Shown: positions 6,001-12,000, numbered from the stretch's first letter. The stretch: DNA of 64,000 bases from an uncultured Gammaproteobacteria bacterium (GCA_964515785.1 CAZEWH010000001.1:134941-198940); one strand, 5' to 3'. Program-made: the numbers.

Positions 6001-9000
6001 TGCACCAACTGGTAAGACTCACTATTATTATCGTGGTTATCCAGTAGTTACCAAAGATTCTTTATCCAATACTTTGGTCAATGGTATCAATGATTTGTAT
6101 AAGTTTACTGTGACTGCTACAAATGATGATATTTCTTTGTATGCCTTTACATTTGGTGTTGCTACAACAGGTGTTACTTTGAGTGATTTTGTCCTCTATA
6201 GTGTAACTGACGGTCAAGATGTCAGTGTCACTGCTGGTACTGCCCCTCTAAACATATGGGCAACATCTGGTACTGATTGGAGTACAAATTACACTTCTGA
6301 TGAAGTAATCATCGGCAGTGGTACTAGTCATACCTTTATCATGAGAGCTACAGTTGCTAGCTCAGGTGATACTGGAGATTCAGTATCAGTCCACTTGGGT
6401 GGTGATGCCGCTCACGTAGCTGGTACAGATACTTTGATGCATACTGCAACTGAAGTAGACGATGATACTAATGATGACTTTATTTGGTCAGACAGAAGTG
6501 CAGGCGCACATACAGCCTCTACTGATGACTGGACAAATGGTTTCCTAGTGTCAGGTCTTGTTTCTCCATCAGGTACTTCTGAAACAACTGGACTCTAATA
6601 TACTAGTTTTTCAGTATACTAATAACAGAAAAGAGGCAATTTTGCCTCTTTTCTGTTTGGTTTTTTTATGTTAATATATTCTTATGTTTAATAGAAAAAA
6701 TAAGGTTTTATCAGCACTATTTATCTTGGTAATAATTGCCTTGATTTTTGTCTGGTTTAATAAAAAACCACCTCAAAACACCACAAGTATTGATTGGGTT
6801 AATCTTGATAGTGTCTTTGCTTTGGATATTCCTGATCACTTTGATGAATACCAGCTAGAGCGTCTTCAAAAGAAAATAGACCATACCAAGCAGTTATTTG
6901 AAGAAAAACCAGAGGATAACTGGACTTTTGTTAATATGGGTAGTATATATGAGTTTGTCAAAGATTATAATCGAGCAATAATTGCCTATGAAAAATCTTT
7001 GTCTATACAGCCAAACGACATTACATCTATACTCAATATTGCTACTATTTATGAAAAATATCAACCAGATTTTGCCAAAGCAGAGCAATATTATTCTCGA
7101 GCTATAGGTATTTTTCCACAGCTTCCAGATTTGTATAATAGACTAGCTAGACTTTATTGGTTAAAAATGGACAGAGTACCTGATGCAGAGACTATATTTT
7201 TGCAAGGTATTGAAGGTAGTCAAGAACATAAAGATTCTTTGGTTAATATTATTGATTTTTATGAAAGGACAGAGCAAATTGCTAAACAAAGAATATATGT
7301 ATCTAGATTATTAGAATTGTATCCCGATGAAGAAATATATCAGGAAGAGTGGGGACATTTAGTTGAATAACAACAATATGAAGATTTTAGAAAAAATATT
7401 ATTTTATGGATTGATTATTACCTTGTTTGTTCCTTTACTTATTGGTCAGAATATGATTTTTCCTTTTGTGACCACCAAGGCGTTTGCTTTTTATGCTATT
7501 ATTGATATTTTGTTGATTTGTTATTTGATTTTATTGACCAAACAGCCGTTGTATCCCAAAAAAAATAAATTATTATTTATTTTTTTGGCTATAATCATAC
7601 TAGGTTGGTTTTTGAATTTGTTTGGTCTTAGTTTCAAGAGTAGTTTTTGGGGCAACTATGAGAGAATGGTTGGTATTTATACTTCTTTTCATTGGCTTGC
7701 TTATTTATGGATGCTTTTGAGTGTTTTTAGTTCTAGAATAAAATATTACAAATTATTAAATATTAGTTTGATAGTCAGTATCTTGGTCAGTATTTATGGT
7801 ATTTTGCAAAAGTTTGAAGCACCTATCTATGGCATTATAAATACCAATGACTTTCGTATTTCAGCGACCTTTGGTAATCCGGCTTATTTGGCTGGTTGGT
7901 TGCTGTTTTTTATTTTTGTCGCTGCTTATTTATTTATAAAAAATAAAAATAAATACTGGCGTATTTTATACATAGTTTCTTTTGTTCTCAATTTATTGAT
8001 TTTTAATTGGACAGTCACTCGTGGAGCTATGGTTGGTTTGGGAGCTGGTATGCTAGCTATGTTGCTTTATCTTGTTTTGTTTTATAAAACAAGAAAAATA
8101 AAAATTATCAGTGCTAGTTTATTAATATTAATAATATTATTTAGCTCATCTATTTTTGTTTTTAAAGATTCATCTTTTGTACAAAACAATCCTGCATTGA
8201 GTCGTATTAGTCAAATTAGCTTAGACGATGCTACTACTGTTTCTCGTTTGACATTGTGGAAGATGAGTATTGAAGCTGCCAAAGAAAGACCAATAGCTGG
8301 CTATGGTGACAACAACATCAGAGTACCGCTTGATAAATACCATGATTATAATTTAGTTGAAGATTGGTTTGATAGCTCTCATAGCAAATTTTTTGATGAA
8401 TTATTAGCCCATGGTGTTATTGGCTTTGTTTTACAGATTGGATTTTTTATCTGGCTGTTGTGGCTTATTTTGAAAAAACGCAAAAAAGATATTTTGGGCA
8501 ATATGATTTTACTTGGCTTATTAATTGCTTATTTAGTCCAAGCTTTGTTTATATTTGATTCTTTTATAGTTGGTTTATCTTTTATATTTATTTTAGGGTT
8601 TTTACTTGTAAAACTTAGAGATCCAAAACAAGATATTATTTTCAAAAAAAATATACCAGCTTATATAGTTGTGCCTTTGATAATTGCTATAGCTTGGATG
8701 TCTTTGTTTGTTTATACAAATAGCAAAAAACCAGCCAAAAAGATTATTACAGCTCATAGTACAGTACTTACTGATCTCAATCAGACTATAGCTAATTATC
8801 AAGAACTTAGTGAAGAATTATATGTTAACTTTGATATTTTGGCACCATCTATGGCTGAAACATCAATGCTAGTTTTTGAAAATTCTCATAAGTATACTGA
8901 TGTTCAATTACAAGATTTTGTCGAAGTATTGCGTCAAGTCTATGATAGTGCTATTTCTGATACTGGGAATTATTCCAAATTTTATATAAATATGGCCAAG

Positions 9001-12000
9001 CTATACCAATTGGCTTCTCGACATCCTCGTCTAGATTACAATCAAGAATCAATGGATTTATTAAATACAGCTCTAGAATATTCTCCTACTAGAGTAGATA
9101 TTTATTATGCTTTGGCTCAAGGATATTTTTTAACAGATGATATAGAATCTGCAGAAAATAGTTTACAAACTGCTTTAGAATTGGGTGTCAAACAAGATGT
9201 TATTTATAATAAATTGGCAGAAGTCCAATCTAGAAAAGGAGATGTAGAGCAGGCTGTAGATAGCATCAAACAAGCTATGACTTTTGGCGCAGATTATGAA
9301 TTTACAGAACTAGAAGCTTTTGCTCAGATTTTTATAAAAAGAGAGGCTTGGCAATCTGTTTTGGAAGTATTTTTGATTATGGATAAGATGCAACCAAACA
9401 ATACAGATACTTTTGTTAATATAGCTTTGACTTATAATCAACTAGGAGACAAAGAACAGGCTACTATATGGATAAATAAAATTTTGGAAATCGATCCTAG
9501 TATGCAAGATCAAGTTAATGAATTTATTTCTAATTTATAATATTTTAAAAATATGAATCTAAAAGAAAATATTATCCACAAGGGTATATGGATTATTTTG
9601 GGACTTATTATGTTTGTCCCTATTTATGTAAATAGTGATTTCTTTTTTCCTTATATCTTTAGTAAGACTTTGGTGTTTAGGGTTTTGGTAGAAATGTTGT
9701 TGTTACTTTATTTGGTCTGGCTTTGGTTAAAAAAAGAAAACAGACTTAGACTTGATTGGATGTCTATTTCTTTTTTCCTTTTGATAATTTTTATGTTCAT
9801 CTCTTCAATATCTGGGCATGATTTTTATTTTAGTTTTTGGAGCAACACAGAAAGAGGTGAGGGTATTTTGCTGTGGTTACATTTATTTGCTTTTTTTGTA
9901 GTCTTACGTAATTTTGTCAAAGGTAGCAAAGCTTGGTTATGGATTTTTGATATGTTCTTATTGACCGCTCAAGTAGTAGCTATATTAGGCTTTTTTCAAT
10001 ATCTGGGTCTTGATTTTGTCAGCAAAACAGGCATAGCCAATGATCGTATTGACTCTACGATTGGTAATGCAGCTTATTTGGCTGGTTATATGCTTTTTGC
10101 TGCTTATTTAGCTATTTATTTGGCTATCAAAAGAAAGAAAAAAGCATTATTGATTTATTATGTTCCTATAGTTATTTTGGATATATTTATTCTAATGCAG
10201 ACTGGTACTAGGGGTGCTTTTATTGCTTTGGTTGCTACTATACTATTATTTTTTATTTTTAATATTTTTAGATTATCTAATAAGAAAATAAAAACTTATT
10301 TTATAGCCATAACAATTTTATTGGTTACTTTTGGTACTTTTACTTTTGTAAATAAAGATAGTAATTTTGTACAAAACAATGATTCTCTGCGTCGTTTGAC
10401 TAGTGTTTCTTTGGATGAGCGCACTGTCCAAACTCGTTTTATGACTTGGGAATCTGCTTGGAAAGGTTTCAAAGAAAAGCCAATTTTGGGTTATGGTCAA
10501 GAAAATTTTTATATAGTTTTTAATAAATATTTTAATCCAGAGATTTATTCTCACTCTGGTTCTAGAATTTGGTTTGATCGAGCTCACAATATATTTATAG
10601 ATCATCTTATTACAGGGGGTATTATTGGTTTGATACTTTATAGTATTTTGATTTTTGGTCCAGCTTGGGCTTTGCTCAAAAAAGGAGTTTTAAAAAAATC
10701 AAAACAATCAACAGAAGATGGACCACCAAAAAAATCAATCAACCTACCTGAACAAATATTATTATTATCAATAATTGCTTTTATAATTCAAGGTCTGGTT
10801 GTTTTTGAAGCTTTAGTAACTTATATGCCTTTGTTGTTGATATTGGCTTGCATAACTAGTAAATATATCAAACCTATAAAAAGATGGAATAATCGCAAAA
10901 TTGTTCTTGCTAGTTTGATTATTTATTTGATAGCTCTTTTTCCTATTATGCATATTGTAAATATCAGAGAAACAAAAGCCAATGTTATTTTACTCAAGGC
11001 CATGTATTTGCAAAATAACGAAGATACTATTGATCAAGCAATAGAAATGTATTTTGAATCAATTGATTATAATACTTTAGGCAAACAAGAGTTTCGTCGT
11101 CGAGCTGCTGAATATATTGACTCTTTGGTTATGAATCAAAAAGGCGATCCTTTGAAAATCGTTGAGTATGTTAATAGAATAGATAGTGAGTTATTAAAAA
11201 GAATCGAAGAAACCCCAGCAGATGTGACAAATTATTTATTATTGATGCGGCATTACAATTATACTTATAATTTTAATCCAGAACGTCTCTATGAGGTTGA
11301 TCGTATAGGTCAATTAGCTTTAGAATATAGTCCGACACGCCCACAAATTTATTATGAATTAGGTTATTCTGATATGTATCTTTATGATTTTTCACTCGAA
11401 AATGGACAGTCTGAACAAGCTGCATTTTATCAAAATAGAACTAAAGAAAACTTTGATAAAGCAATTGAGTTAAACGATGATGTTTCGGAATCTTATGTTA
11501 GTGCAATAATGGCCCTAATGAATATTGATAGAGGTGATTTGGTAGCAGAATATCTAGATAAAATGTCAGATGTTGGTATAAGCAAGCTTAGTGAGCATAA
11601 TATAGTTCGTTTGGCTAATGCAGCCAAGTTTTCTGAAGATTTTGAATGGGCAATTTATTTTTATGAACTATTAGTAGCCAATTATAATAATGTACCTGAT
11701 TATTATATAAATTTAGCTTTGTTACATGCTAGTGCAGAAGATTTTGAAAAAGCTATCGCTATAGCTGAAGAAATTAAAAAGTTTGGTGAACCATATATTA
11801 CTCAAGCTGATCAGTTTATCAAAGATCTTATAAACGGAGATTTCAAACAATAATTTTTATTTAAAAACCCCCGCCGTAGGCGGGGGTTTTATTTTTATAA
11901 TTTAAAATAATTTTAAATATAATTCTTCTGTTTTTTTGAGAGTTTTGTCTAAAGAAAAATTATTAATTATATTTTTATAATTATTATTTATTAATTTATC

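Follow-up and report, generated by a model that had tools for sequence, protein, structure and literature searches.

Tandem Wzy_C-TPR Membrane Enzymes Co-Inherited with a Large Secreted Protein in Patescibacteria as Candidate Protein O-Oligosaccharyltransferases

Two tandem genes of a Patescibacteria (CPR) bacterium, here termed ORF-A and ORF-B, encode membrane enzymes of the Wzy_C family with C-terminal TPR domains, found in a 64,000-nucleotide stretch of DNA (“the window”). We consider it probable, though far from certain, that both enzymes are O-oligosaccharyltransferases (O-OTases) with a function similar to PglL, WsfB or WsaB, and that their most likely target is the adjacent large secreted protein (“BIG”), because the enzymes are co-inherited with BIG across many Patescibacteria. 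The first-pass annotation had named a surface protein or pilins as acceptors; the former is in keeping with our results and with a precedent from Gram-positive S-layers, whereas no connection to the pilins was found.

Two Tandem Enzymes with Wzy_C and TPR Domains

ORF-A (7378..9540) and ORF-B (9553..11853) lie on the same (plus) strand. The frame of ORF-A is open from 7363 or 7378, and we take the ATG at 7378 as its start because homologues begin with “MKILEK.” Both proteins match Pfam Wzy_C (PF04932, not PF13425) well above the gathering score of 31.7, with 75.3 bits for ORF-A and 79.6 bits for ORF-B. They align with each other over the full length (BLASTP E=2e-58, 26% identity) and are true paralogues. 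ORF-A is predicted to consist of a membrane enzyme of the Wzy_C/WaaL fold (aa 1-450, 13 TM) and a TPR domain outside the membrane (aa 451-720; 8728..9537, plus strand), the latter recognised by TPR Pfam and PDB TPR matches, with the TPR domains of OGT and SPY among its best structural matches.

The C-terminal domain covers ~270-290 aa in each paralogue and is plainly TPR in ORF-A. In ORF-B (aa ~474-766) it is TPR-like and diverged: its own sequence yields TPR_1 at E=0.005, below the Pfam cutoff, the top PDB TPR match has E=0.14, and only one short motif is common with the ORF-A TPR domain (E=9e-5). We read it as a diverged TPR domain because Pfam clearly recognises TPR in many full-length relatives of ORF-B (38-43% identity). 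The tandem fusion architecture proposed earlier is therefore seen directly in ORF-A and by way of relatives in ORF-B. NCBIfam also gave weak matches to PgaA and PrsT, and in ORF-A to the repeat-unit polymerase model TIGR04370 (E=2e-4). Together with a preceding small TPR gene, the two genes form an operon with gaps of 7 and 12 nt, closed by a strong intrinsic terminator (11864..11890, plus strand; a 12-bp stem with 8 GC pairs, then a T-run).

Lys and Arg account for 13 of 39 residues in the cytoplasmic loops and 3 of 59 in the short outside loops. With 13 TM helices, the positive-inside rule predicts that the TPR domain is not cytoplasmic but lies outside the cell, facing the same way as the catalytic loop. 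This predicted catalytic loop is the large extracytoplasmic one between TM9 and TM10 of ORF-A (aa 262-336; 8161..8385, plus strand), which bears R290, D332 and H335. Among 51 sequences, R96, R290, D332 and H335 (ORF-A numbering) are invariant, and at least 90% of the sequences retain R215 and D394. ORF-B keeps its catalytic residues as R101, R220, R295, D342, H345 and E419, and the full Arg/Arg/His (+Asp/Glu) constellation, whose loss would have spoken against the original proposal, is common to both paralogues.

Only two solved families are matched by the membrane-domain profile, namely WaaL (7tpg, 5e-13) and an “Oligosaccharyltransferase” (9rmk, 3e-11 over 352 residues), which we infer to be PglL because of its length (610 aa) and His349. 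R215, R290 and H335 align with Arg, Arg and His of both structures (His349 in 9rmk), so that the comparison with PglL catalytic residues suggested at the outset holds, and D394 of ORF-A occupies the position of the acidic residue E404 of PglL. Published work describes what the Arg residues, the His and E404 do, and reports E404 as important (PMC12800693). WaaL and the PglL-like OTase score about equally well, the WaaL fold is the top structural match, and a protein O-OTase is inseparable by sequence and fold from a WaaL-type ligase or a Wzy-type polymerase.

A Large Secreted Protein and a Conserved Gene Module

BIG (2936..6598, plus strand) is a secreted, Ser/Thr-rich and acidic surface protein of 1220 aa, identified by its signal peptide and composition: Ser and Thr make up 20.9% of the mature form vs a background of 10.7%, and Asp and Glu number 163 vs 47 Lys and Arg. 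Its position before the enzymes had been described correctly, although a gene that had gone unmentioned intervenes. It encodes a small membrane-anchored TPR protein of 228 aa (6684..7370, plus strand) with one N-terminal TM and matches to TPR_8 (46.2 bits) and TPR_12 (44.5 bits), a candidate WsaA-like accessory. A strong intrinsic terminator follows the BIG gene (6624..6657, plus strand; 15-bp stem, then a T-run).

Pfam and NCBIfam gave no match for BIG, and neither an SLH domain nor any other recognised mark of S-layer proteins was found in it. Its family comprises at least 175 members of ~1150-1370 aa, all from Patescibacteria and all “hypothetical proteins.” An AF2 model (pLDDT 87) consists of a conserved N-terminal alpha/beta domain of ~200 aa, built of three beta-beta-beta-alpha units and set off by an acidic linker from a chain of beta-sandwich domains. 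Foldseek matches are multi-Ig surface proteins of a generic kind, including PrgB, AgI/II and the archaeal S-layer protein 7ptp. We regard BIG as a candidate glycan acceptor and a candidate S-layer or adhesin protein.

The module opens with an ECF-type sigma factor (610..1161, plus strand; Pfam Sigma70_r2, Sigma70_r4_2 and Sigma70_ECF) and a DUF5667 protein of anti-sigma-like architecture (1172..2548, plus strand; 42.9 bits vs a Pfam cutoff of 27), which has a ~58-aa cytoplasmic N-terminus, one TM (hydrophobic segment ~59) and a very acidic exterior domain. The sigma gene is kept upstream of the large protein in loci L001-5, L007, L011, L013-15, L017, L019, L020, L027 and L069-74, and in related loci the DUF5667 gene always comes after it. 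The small TPR gene is likewise kept in L001-6, L070, L071, L073 and L074.

The order of ECF sigma, DUF5667, ~1200-aa secreted protein, small TPR protein and one to four Wzy_C-TPR genes recurs in ~30 loci, in both search directions and down to ~27% identity. In the forward direction, all seven context look-ups from relatives (28-79% identity) show the module with homologous BIG proteins, and in the reverse direction each of four distant BIG homologues is immediately followed by 1-3 Wzy_C(-TPR) genes. Species-representative genomes, when scanned, gave 61 loci, with a BIG homologue detectable directly upstream in 18, an unrelated large S/T-rich secreted ORF adjacent in seven more, and the small TPR gene located between BIG and Wzy_C in 17. 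A large S/T-rich neighbour is missing from over half of the 61, and in many of these a secreted subtilase is the partner of the Wzy_C-TPR gene instead; the unrelated secreted partners across CPR lineages are LTD, fn3/Gly-rich proteins and S8 subtilases.

The relatives are all from Patescibacteria, and so is the host. CPR cells reportedly carry an S-layer but lack an outer membrane (10.1101/2020.05.14.094862), so that lipid A-core would not be expected as the acceptor, as the first-pass annotation had held on other grounds. As a separate observation, genes of the PMT family (GT-C, the protein O-mannosyltransferase family) lie directly within the modules of L073 and L074, an extra hint of protein glycosylation.

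The Glycan Locus and the Pilus Operon

A convergent GT4 glycosyltransferase gene (11902..13113, minus strand; Glycos_transf_1 120.7 bits) is conserved directly after the Wzy_C genes in most related loci (tblastn E down to 1e-166). Downstream, the paralogues are flanked, as had been proposed, by a glycan locus of ~28 kb with ~11 GT4/GT1/GT2 genes. Its assembly and tailoring part (13164..38572, plus strand; Pfam and NCBIfam) contains ~10 GT4/GT1/GT2 genes, three B12-radical SAM enzymes, a PMT_2 GT-C, a carbamoyltransferase, a WbuX-like amidotransferase, an rSAM-SPASM protein and a methyltransferase; the gene content differs between relatives, and the sole unannotated ORF is soluble. The locus also includes a Wzx-type (MOP/Polysacc_synt) flippase (38547..39812, minus strand; Polysacc_synt 72.7 bits, weak WZX_like NCBIfam match) and, next to it, an initiating polyprenyl-phosphate glycosylphosphotransferase of the WbaP/WcaJ type (39812..41179, minus strand; Bac_transf 221 bits, TIGR03025 378.9 bits at a cutoff of 295.55), which is predicted to make an Und-PP-linked donor. 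Neither Wzz nor an ABC exporter was found in this locus, nor any further candidate for Wzy.

The pilin-rich operon noticed earlier is present, as a type IV pilus operon with four N_methyl pilin-like genes (44898-57503), but its proposed role as a source of acceptors is not supported. It starts ~33 kb downstream of the Wzy_C-TPR genes. TfpO-type OTases glycosylate a C-terminal Ser of the pilin, and the major pilin here has none; by genomic distance and by the C-terminus of the major pilin, no specific link between the enzymes and the pilins was found.

Comparison with Known Systems

The closest precedent by description is provided by the slg clusters for S-layer glycosylation in Paenibacillus alvei and Geobacillus stearothermophilus, which lie beside the S-layer gene and have a WbaP-like initiator (PMC2943079). 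In both cases the host is monoderm, a large secreted surface protein is encoded beside the cluster and a WbaP-like initiating transferase is present, and wsfA, which is Asn-synthase/amidotransferase-like, has its counterpart at 32724-34751. In slg clusters the TPR is either C-terminal (WsfB) or a separate small protein, WsaA, encoded just upstream of WsaB (PMC2943079), whereas the window has both at once. The slg glycan leaves by a Wzm/Wzt ABC transporter while the window has a Wzx flippase, and the slg acceptor is a proven SLH-anchored S-layer protein while the candidate in the window belongs to an uncharacterised CPR-restricted family. Unlike slg clusters, the window also has two tandem paralogues and a module that opens with the ECF sigma/DUF5667 pair.

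Neisseria PglL (9rmk; relatives PglS, TfpO and PilO) likewise has a Wzy_C domain, uses an Und-PP-glycan donor flipped by Wzx, and bears a C-terminal extracytoplasmic extension that, as in WsfB, is described as a TPR motif (PMC2943079). In contrast to the window enzymes, it works in a diderm host on periplasmic acceptors (pilin and many other proteins), and identity between them is ~25% or less. To our knowledge, PglL genes are not typically found beside a single dedicated acceptor gene. WaaL of Cupriavidus metallidurans (7tpg/7tpj) is like the window enzymes in its predicted chemistry, a transfer from Und-PP-glycan at the outer face of the membrane, but lacks the 13th TM helix and the TPR domain and acts on lipid A-core, which a monoderm CPR bacterium is not expected to make. 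Eukaryotic OGT/SPINDLY and the TMTC O-mannosyltransferases also combine a glycosyltransferase with a TPR superhelix used for choosing protein substrates; their donors are nucleotide sugar for OGT and Dol-P-Man for TMTC, their catalytic folds are unrelated to Wzy_C enzymes, and the likeness would be one of design and not of catalytic-domain homology.

Alternative Functions

The strongest competing explanation, although in our view an unlikely one, follows WpaA/WpaB of Bacillus anthracis: the enzymes would polymerise and/or ligate a secondary cell-wall polysaccharide (SCWP) or similar envelope polymer outside the membrane, BIG would not be a substrate but would bind this polymer via its conserved N-terminal alpha/beta domain, and the genes would stay linked because the surface layer is anchored by this polymer. 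WpaA and WpaB are likewise two paralogues of the O-antigen-ligase clan (CL0499) in a monoderm, S-layer assembly needs them and is disrupted on their depletion, and polymerisation and ligation of SCWP have been proposed for them (PMC6030368). Co-inheritance with the surface protein is expected under such a model too, and the ~200-aa N-terminal domain of BIG could be a wall-binding module. CPR bacteria are without the SLH/CsaB system (10.1101/2021.05.31.446380) and would need another way of anchoring, the glycan locus is big enough for polymer synthesis, and TPR domains are known scaffolds of polysaccharide export (PMC2943079, its reference 99), in line with the weak PgaA and PrsT matches.

However, the closest described Wzy_C + TPR architectures are protein O-OTases (PMC2943079), whereas WpaA/WpaB belong to another Pfam family (PF13425), have no TPR fusion described, and are putative enzymes whose proposed substrate is peptidoglycan-linked SCWP and not protein. 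Neither a ligase of the LCP family nor a chain-length regulator of the Wzz type is encoded in the window, the module persists in L073 although no glycan locus is nearby, and the exchange of secreted partners between CPR lineages looks more like enzyme-substrate pairing than like the use of a common wall polymer.

A division of labour between the paralogues is slightly less plausible again. One would be a Wzy-type repeat-unit polymerase, or an outer-glycan ligase acting on a core glycan already bound to protein, and the other a protein O-OTase, with the conserved ORF-A directed at the acceptor and the variable ORF-B at the glycan. Close relatives do keep a stable A-type orthologue in slot 1 (41-79% identity), whereas slot 2 varies, holding a B-type gene, a third type of ~670 aa, or none. 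This mirrors O-antigen systems, in which WaaL is conserved and Wzy is serotype-specific. The window also has Wzx and an initiating transferase with no other polymerase candidate, and the weak TIGR04370 match of ORF-A points the same way. On the other hand, an A-type gene is the sole Wzy_C gene in L010 and L012 and a B-type gene the sole one beside BIG in L074; since either type can stand alone, neither strictly requires the other, and this speaks against an obligate pair of polymerase and ligase. Copy number in the module loci ranges from 1 to 4, both paralogues share the catalytic constellation and the TPR architecture, and a Wzz co-polymerase is not present.

The Wzy_C family further includes TacL, the lipoteichoic acid ligase of Streptococcus pneumoniae. 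A TacL-like transfer of the Und-PP-linked chain to a membrane glycolipid anchor, giving a lipoteichoic-acid-like or lipoglycan product on the monoderm surface, would suit a host without LPS (10.1101/2020.05.14.094862) and the WaaL fold, but is improbable: it leaves unexplained the outward-facing TPR domain, the separate small TPR protein and why, whichever way the search is run, the enzymes are so tightly co-inherited with a single family of secreted proteins, and no genes for glycolipid-anchor synthesis were recognised in the window.

Proposed Mechanism of Surface Protein Glycosylation

If ORF-A and ORF-B are indeed O-OTases for BIG, the glycan would be started on undecaprenyl pyrophosphate by the WbaP-like transferase, extended by the GT4/GT2 and tailoring enzymes encoded in the neighbouring locus, and flipped by Wzx across the single membrane to its outer face. 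There, the invariant Arg residues may hold the pyrophosphate of the lipid-linked donor while the invariant His of the large outside loop would catalyse transfer of the whole glycan en bloc onto Ser/Thr (or Tyr) hydroxyl groups in BIG, presumably as BIG emerges from the membrane. The TPR domain, put outside by the 13th TM helix, may recruit or position the acceptor protein, with the small membrane-anchored TPR protein as a possible WsaA-like accessory. ORF-A and ORF-B would then be alternative transferases of one kind that differ in their specificity for the glycan donor or the acceptor site, and not an obligate pair of polymerase and ligase.

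Two Wzy_C Enzymes with C-Terminal TPR Domains

On the densely coding + strand of the window (GC ~30%), two neighbouring genes encode Wzy_C proteins, namely ORF-A (7378-9540, 720 aa), with a C-terminal TPR domain, and ORF-B (9553-11853, 766 aa), in which this domain has diverged. Wzy_C scores 75.3 bits in ORF-A and 79.6 bits in ORF-B against a Pfam gathering score of 31.7, and the two proteins align end to end at 26% identity (E=2e-58), confirming the first-pass annotation that they are real tandem paralogues. That annotation also placed the ORF-A start correctly, at the ATG at 7378 and not at the TTG at 7363 of the mechanical ORF list, because every homologue starts with "MKILEK".

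The last 270 residues of ORF-A are unambiguously a TPR domain, scoring above the Pfam cutoffs for TPR_8 (47.2 vs. 25.7), TPR_1 (36.7 vs. 27.8) and TPR_2 (34 vs. 27), and are matched by consensus-TPR proteins of the PDB (E=1e-20). A TPR domain had been assigned to both paralogues; that of ORF-B taken alone stays under the cutoff (TPR_1 17.0 bits, E=0.005, vs. 27.8), the top PDB TPR match of its C-terminal ~290 residues has E=0.14, and it has one motif in common with the TPR domain of ORF-A, "ALEYSPTR..IYY.L" (E=9e-5). Since many full-length relatives at 38-43% identity, from a set of at least 552, carry clear TPR Pfam domains, we read the C-terminus of ORF-B as a diverged TPR domain. Three other memberships were rejected: the IctB-type bicarbonate transporter (TIGR00947, 29-34 bits vs. 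a cutoff of 366) reflects generic Wzy_C similarity only, and the exosortase-associated O-glycosylation ligase (TIGR03097, 48 bits vs. 188) and the PrsT TPR protein (TIGR02917, 38-47 bits vs. 312) fall far below their cutoffs. Exosortase or PEP-CTERM genes were not seen.

Topology and Catalytic Residues

ORF-A was modelled by AF2 with high confidence (pLDDT 92.3, pTM 0.86; 51 sequences) as a WaaL-like polytopic fold of 13 TM helices, in which a loop of 75 residues (aa 262-336) joins TM9 to TM10, followed by an all-helical C-terminal domain (aa 451-720). Lysine and arginine account for 13 of the 39 residues in loops predicted as cytoplasmic vs. 3 of 59 in the short outside loops, and for this reason we orient the N-terminus inside and the large loop outside. 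TM1-12 are thus predicted to form the WaaL core and TM13 to bring the TPR domain outside, making it extracytoplasmic in the model rather than cytoplasmic.

The membrane-domain profile matches two solved families only, WaaL (7tpg, 5e-13) and the 610-aa PDB entry 9rmk, named "Oligosaccharyltransferase" (3e-11, alignment spanning 352 residues), a similarity that does not tell an oligosaccharyltransferase (OTase) from a ligase. Both paralogues have the Arg and His residues of this fold: R215, R290 and H335 of ORF-A and R220, R295 and H345 of ORF-B align with WaaL and 9rmk, at positions that are either invariant or kept in at least 98% of the 51 sequences, and H335 falls on the His at residue 349 of 9rmk, where N. 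meningitidis PglL has its essential His. R96, R290, D332 and H335 (ORF-A numbering) are invariant in the 51 sequences, R215 and D394 are retained by at least 90% of them, and the counterparts R101, R220, R295, D342, H345 and E419 are present in ORF-B. In enzymes of this kind Arg serves Und-PP binding and His catalysis, and a role of PglL E404 has been summarised as well (PMC12800693). Both features on which the first-pass annotation had made its proposal depend, a TPR domain predicted outside the cytoplasm and the catalytic Arg/His, are thus borne out by the model and the alignments.

The Large Secreted Protein

Upstream of ORF-A lies the gene of a large secreted protein of 1220 aa with a signal peptide, here called BIG (2936-6598, +). 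Its mature form contains 20.9% Ser+Thr vs. 10.7% in neighbouring proteins, and is acidic (D+E 163 vs. K+R 47). The family comprises at least 175 proteins, all annotated "hypothetical" and kept at a length of about 1150-1370 aa; all but one of the 120 matches listed are without any Pfam domain, the exception being P0102 (PF00404). In the AF2 model (pLDDT 87.4), an N-terminal alpha/beta domain of ~200 aa made of three beta-beta-beta-alpha units is followed by a disordered acidic linker and a chain of beta-sandwich domains. Foldseek returned generic multi-Ig extracellular proteins (PrgB, alpha-2-macroglobulins, integrins, AgI/II) and no specific family, with the Haloferax S-layer glycoprotein 7ptp at rank 48; neither an SLH domain nor another S-layer signature was detected in BIG. 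A structure of this kind would suit a surface coat or adhesin protein. The strong terminator directly 3' of the gene (6624-6657, +) is what one would expect of a structural gene that is highly expressed and has a separate transcript end.

Conservation within the family is highest at the C-terminus (~6400-6598), in the motif "DFIWSD..S..(~10)..DW.NGYLV.GL", whose residues W1155, D1157 and W1170 (mature numbering) vary little or not at all. Neither a TM segment nor a sortase signal comes after this motif, which could serve in sorting, anchoring or recognition. The GC content at 2000-6600, over the BIG gene, is 36-39% vs. ~29-33% around it, which probably reflects the Gly/Ala/Thr/Asp-rich composition of the protein.

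A Conserved Module in Patescibacteria

The BIG gene is preceded by genes of an ECF-type sigma factor (610-1161, +) and a DUF5667 protein (1172-2548, +), which is anti-sigma-like with a short cytoplasmic N-terminus, one TM segment and an extremely acidic exterior domain. It is followed by a gene of a small TPR protein of 228 aa with one N-terminal TM segment (6684-7370, +), from which ORF-A and ORF-B are separated by successive gaps of 7 and 12 nt. A second strong terminator (11864-11890, +) comes after ORF-B, and then a convergent GT4 glycosyltransferase gene (11902-13113, -). The loci of ORF-A relatives at 79%, 54%, 47% and 44% identity all have this order: sigma factor, DUF5667, a protein of 1220-1285 aa, small TPR protein, Wzy_C-TPR, second Wzy_C, and GT4 on the opposite strand. 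Two loci in the 28-29% identity range retain parts of it, one with sigma factor, DUF5667, a 1302-aa protein and Wzy_C-TPR (L007), and the other with two Wzy_C genes besides those of the large protein and the small TPR protein (L006). The large proteins of related loci are themselves homologous, at 83% to 27% identity (E 0 to 3e-68).

We surveyed this association in both directions. A single-sequence scan of GTDB species representatives gave 61 loci, and a BIG homologue detectable by tblastn lies directly upstream on the same strand in 18 of them, including every close relative with sufficient upstream sequence. Seven more loci have an adjacent large secreted ORF with 17-30% S+T that BLAST missed; a Pfam scan of three of these found two LTD proteins and one fn3/Gly-rich protein. 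In the reverse direction, all four distant BIG homologues (29-41% identity) have sigma/DUF5667 genes upstream, and 1-3 Wzy_C(-TPR) genes and the small TPR protein downstream. One of these four, L073, lacks a glycan locus in its vicinity, and its BIG gene is directly followed by a GT-C gene of the PMT family. A distant subgroup of Wzy_C-TPR proteins from CPR, the Patescibacteria (~820 aa, 13-15 TM), is instead consistently followed by a secreted S8 subtilase (Peptidase_S8) of ~750 aa with FG-GAP repeats (L034 12422-14737, L042 6292-8553, L050 12463-14718, L065 12454-14697 and L008 12699-14933). Because Wzy_C-TPR genes recur beside large secreted proteins of different families, the pattern looks like an enzyme-substrate pairing.

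The sigma/DUF5667 pair stands upstream of BIG wherever the upstream sequence suffices (610-2548 in the window; also L001-5, L007, L011, L013-15, L017, L019, L020, L027 and L069-74), which suggests control of a coat and glycosylation module by envelope signals and a possible function for DUF5667. Small GIY-YIG ORFs resembling homing endonucleases are inserted between module genes at two loci (L003 15442-15858; L006 4337-4731).

Homologues of ORF-A, ORF-B and BIG were found only in MAGs of Patescibacteria/CPR, from Magasanikbacteria, Komeilibacteria, Falkowbacteria, Doudnabacteria, Buchananbacteria and Parcubacteria, and proteins identical to those of the window occur in public assemblies (P0083, P0203). 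Many contigs of this clade carry the database organism labels "uncultured Gammaproteobacteria", "Saccharibacteria" or "Legionellaceae" (L010, L013, L017, L019, L020 and others); such labels are unreliable, the gene content being plainly that of Patescibacteria.

Glycan Donor Pathway and Neighbouring Genes

The glycan locus (13164-38572, +) encodes about 10 GT4/GT1/GT2 glycosyltransferases, three B12-binding radical SAM enzymes, one PMT_2 GT-C, a carbamoyltransferase, a WbuX-like amidotransferase, an rSAM-SPASM enzyme and a methyltransferase. At its end are a Wzx-type flippase (38547-39812, -; Polysacc_synt 72.7 bits) and a WbaP/WcaJ-like initiating phosphoglycosyl transferase (39812-41179, -; TIGR03025 378.9 bits vs. 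295.55), so that a pathway to an Und-PP-linked donor is present in the window. The glycan locus has the Wzx-type flippase in place of a Wzm/Wzt-type ABC exporter, none of which was found there; MacB-type ABC genes occur at 57609-62622, past the type IV pilus operon.

The three B12-binding radical SAM genes (15473-16918, 18099-19553 and 21672-23186) are interspersed with GT4 genes, and the rSAM-SPASM enzyme is encoded at 36792-37844. Such genes, which L001, L003 and L074 have too, are unusual company in glycan clusters and hint that sugars are tailored in exotic ways, for instance by radical C-methylation. Between 29208 and 34751 are the carbamoyltransferase, a GDSL esterase/acyltransferase, an SxtJ-like small membrane protein and the WbuX-like N-acetyl-sugar amidotransferase (TIGR03573 E=1e-42, below the model cutoff), which together suggest a carbamoylated or amidated glycan. 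GT-C genes of the PMT/PMT_2 family recur in or beside the module (window 25814-28074; L073 10773-12416; L074 11332-13050), that of the window having 10 predicted TM segments and overlapping a GT2 gene. A second extracytoplasmic glycosylation route, protein O-mannosylation-like or by Und-P-sugar decoration, is possible.

Beyond the glycan locus come a Che-like module (41347-44881) and the type IV pilus operon (44898-57503). MCP-like, CheW, CheA-like (Hpt/HATPase/CheW) and CheY genes stand directly upstream of pilB, pilC and pilM (41347-57503), and the pilus operon, in which four N_methyl pilin-like genes were counted, encodes huge N_methyl "pilins" (663, 1033 and 422 aa, with LamG in the 422-aa protein) as well as a major pilin of 163 aa. 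The arrangement looks like a Pil-Chp-like control system, the CPR type IV pilus in question having minor pilins of giant size.

Acceptor of the Glycan: Protein, Wall Polymer or Lipid?

The first-pass annotation had described this context correctly, except that it left the small TPR gene unmentioned, and proposed that the two enzymes are O-OTases for the surface protein or for pilins. We favour the first half of this proposal, that ORF-A and ORF-B are protein O-OTases acting on the adjacent BIG, and hold it slightly beyond an even chance. The pilin half found no specific support: the pilus operon starts ~33 kb away, no pilin gene adjoins the enzymes, and a C-terminal Ser is missing from the major pilin. 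On these grounds a pilin-specific OTase of the TfpO/PilO type was rejected.

Among the arrangements described, the S-layer glycosylation (slg) clusters of Gram-positives come closest. They adjoin the S-layer gene and employ a homologue of WbaP; Wzy_C is present in both of their "predicted" O-OTases, WsaB and WsfB, a C-terminal TPR motif occurs in WsfB as well as in PglL, and WsaB lacks it but is preceded by the gene of a small TPR protein, WsaA (PMC2943079, a 2010 review). The window has both solutions, the fused TPR as in WsfB and the separate small TPR protein as in WsaA. It differs in exporting by Wzx and not by Wzm/Wzt, in the duplication of the enzyme, in the ECF sigma/anti-sigma-like pair within the module, and in its candidate acceptor, BIG belonging to an uncharacterised family whereas the slg neighbour is an S-layer gene.

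The main alternative, which we consider unlikely, is that the Wzy_C-TPR enzymes polymerise or ligate a wall polymer. Its model would be WpaA and WpaB of B. anthracis, a pair of paralogues within the same clan (PF13425). The SCWP that anchors the S-layer is their proposed substrate for polymerisation and ligation, their depletion perturbs S-layer assembly (PMC6030368), and co-inheritance with a surface protein would be expected under this model too. However, LCP genes and a Wzz/PCP chain-length regulator are absent from the window, the module is kept where no glycan locus adjoins, the secreted proteins that partner Wzy_C-TPR genes elsewhere in the CPR are unrelated, and the known Wzy_C+TPR architectures are protein OTases. 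Were this alternative true, the locus would point to surface-layer anchoring in CPR without SLH/CsaB.

Rather more doubtful is a division of labour between the two paralogues. In close relatives, the position next to the small TPR gene is occupied by a stable A-type orthologue (41-79% identity), and the one after it is variable, with a B-type enzyme in L001/L002 and L015, a third type of ~670 aa in seven loci, and none in L010 and L012. At L074, the sole Wzy_C gene of an otherwise identical module encodes a B-type enzyme (52% identity to ORF-B), and several more B-type relatives come from contigs equal in length to those of BIG homologues. The copy number per module ranges from 1 to 4. An obligate pair of polymerase and ligase is unlikely, because either type alone partners BIG and the catalytic residues and architecture are alike; alternative transferases that differ in donor or site specificity fit better. 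A polymerising side activity of the paralogues is possible, and the window has no other polymerase candidate, the sole unannotated ORF of the glycan locus (492 aa, 23189-24667), tried as a missing Wzy polymerase, being soluble with neither a TM segment nor a family match. For two such enzymes in one organism, PMC6120980 cites precedents, among them TfpO and PglL of Acinetobacter (Harding 2015).

A glycolipid ligase is the least likely role, and a very improbable one. As to an LPS ligase of the WaaL type, cryo-TEM of CPR shows an S-layer and no outer membrane (10.1101/2020.05.14.094862) and the group is treated as a monoderm clade that has lost SLH/CsaB (10.1101/2021.05.31.446380), so a lipid A-core acceptor is not expected; this reading was rejected on account of the taxon, the additional 13th TM helix and the TPR domain. 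No LPS genes were seen among the ~55 window ORFs.

Implications for the CPR Cell Surface

The CPR/Patescibacteria form a huge group of very small episymbionts, most of them uncultured, and their biology depends on the cell surface. We know of no identification so far of the protein and the modification machinery of their S-layer. The Wzy_C-TPR O-OTase and S-layer glycosylation class is already known; what is new is the lineage, as our literature searches found no specific description of a CPR Wzy_C-TPR system or of a CPR S-layer glycoprotein. The added value of the locus is that a strongly conserved six-gene module nominates one protein family as the CPR surface-coat glycoprotein, a testable candidate that joins a length-conserved, CPR-only surface protein to its probable glycosylating enzymes by a genomic coupling strong enough to direct glycoproteomic work with enrichment cultures. 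Through it, the design "Wzy_C enzyme plus TPR", known for protein O-OTases of Firmicutes and Proteobacteria, would also reach a monoderm lineage that branches deeply, and the sets of interchangeable OTase paralogues may be of interest for glycoengineering.

More tentatively, the BIG family may supply the S-layer, or the main glycoprotein of the surface coat, in a large section of the Patescibacteria, and the module of ECF sigma factor, DUF5667, coat protein, small TPR protein and 1-4 interchangeable Wzy_C-TPR transferases a self-contained coat assembly regulated by envelope signals. If so, the swapping and duplication of transferases, together with a hypervariable glycan locus, would diversify the glycan of the very surface that mediates host attachment and exposure to phage.
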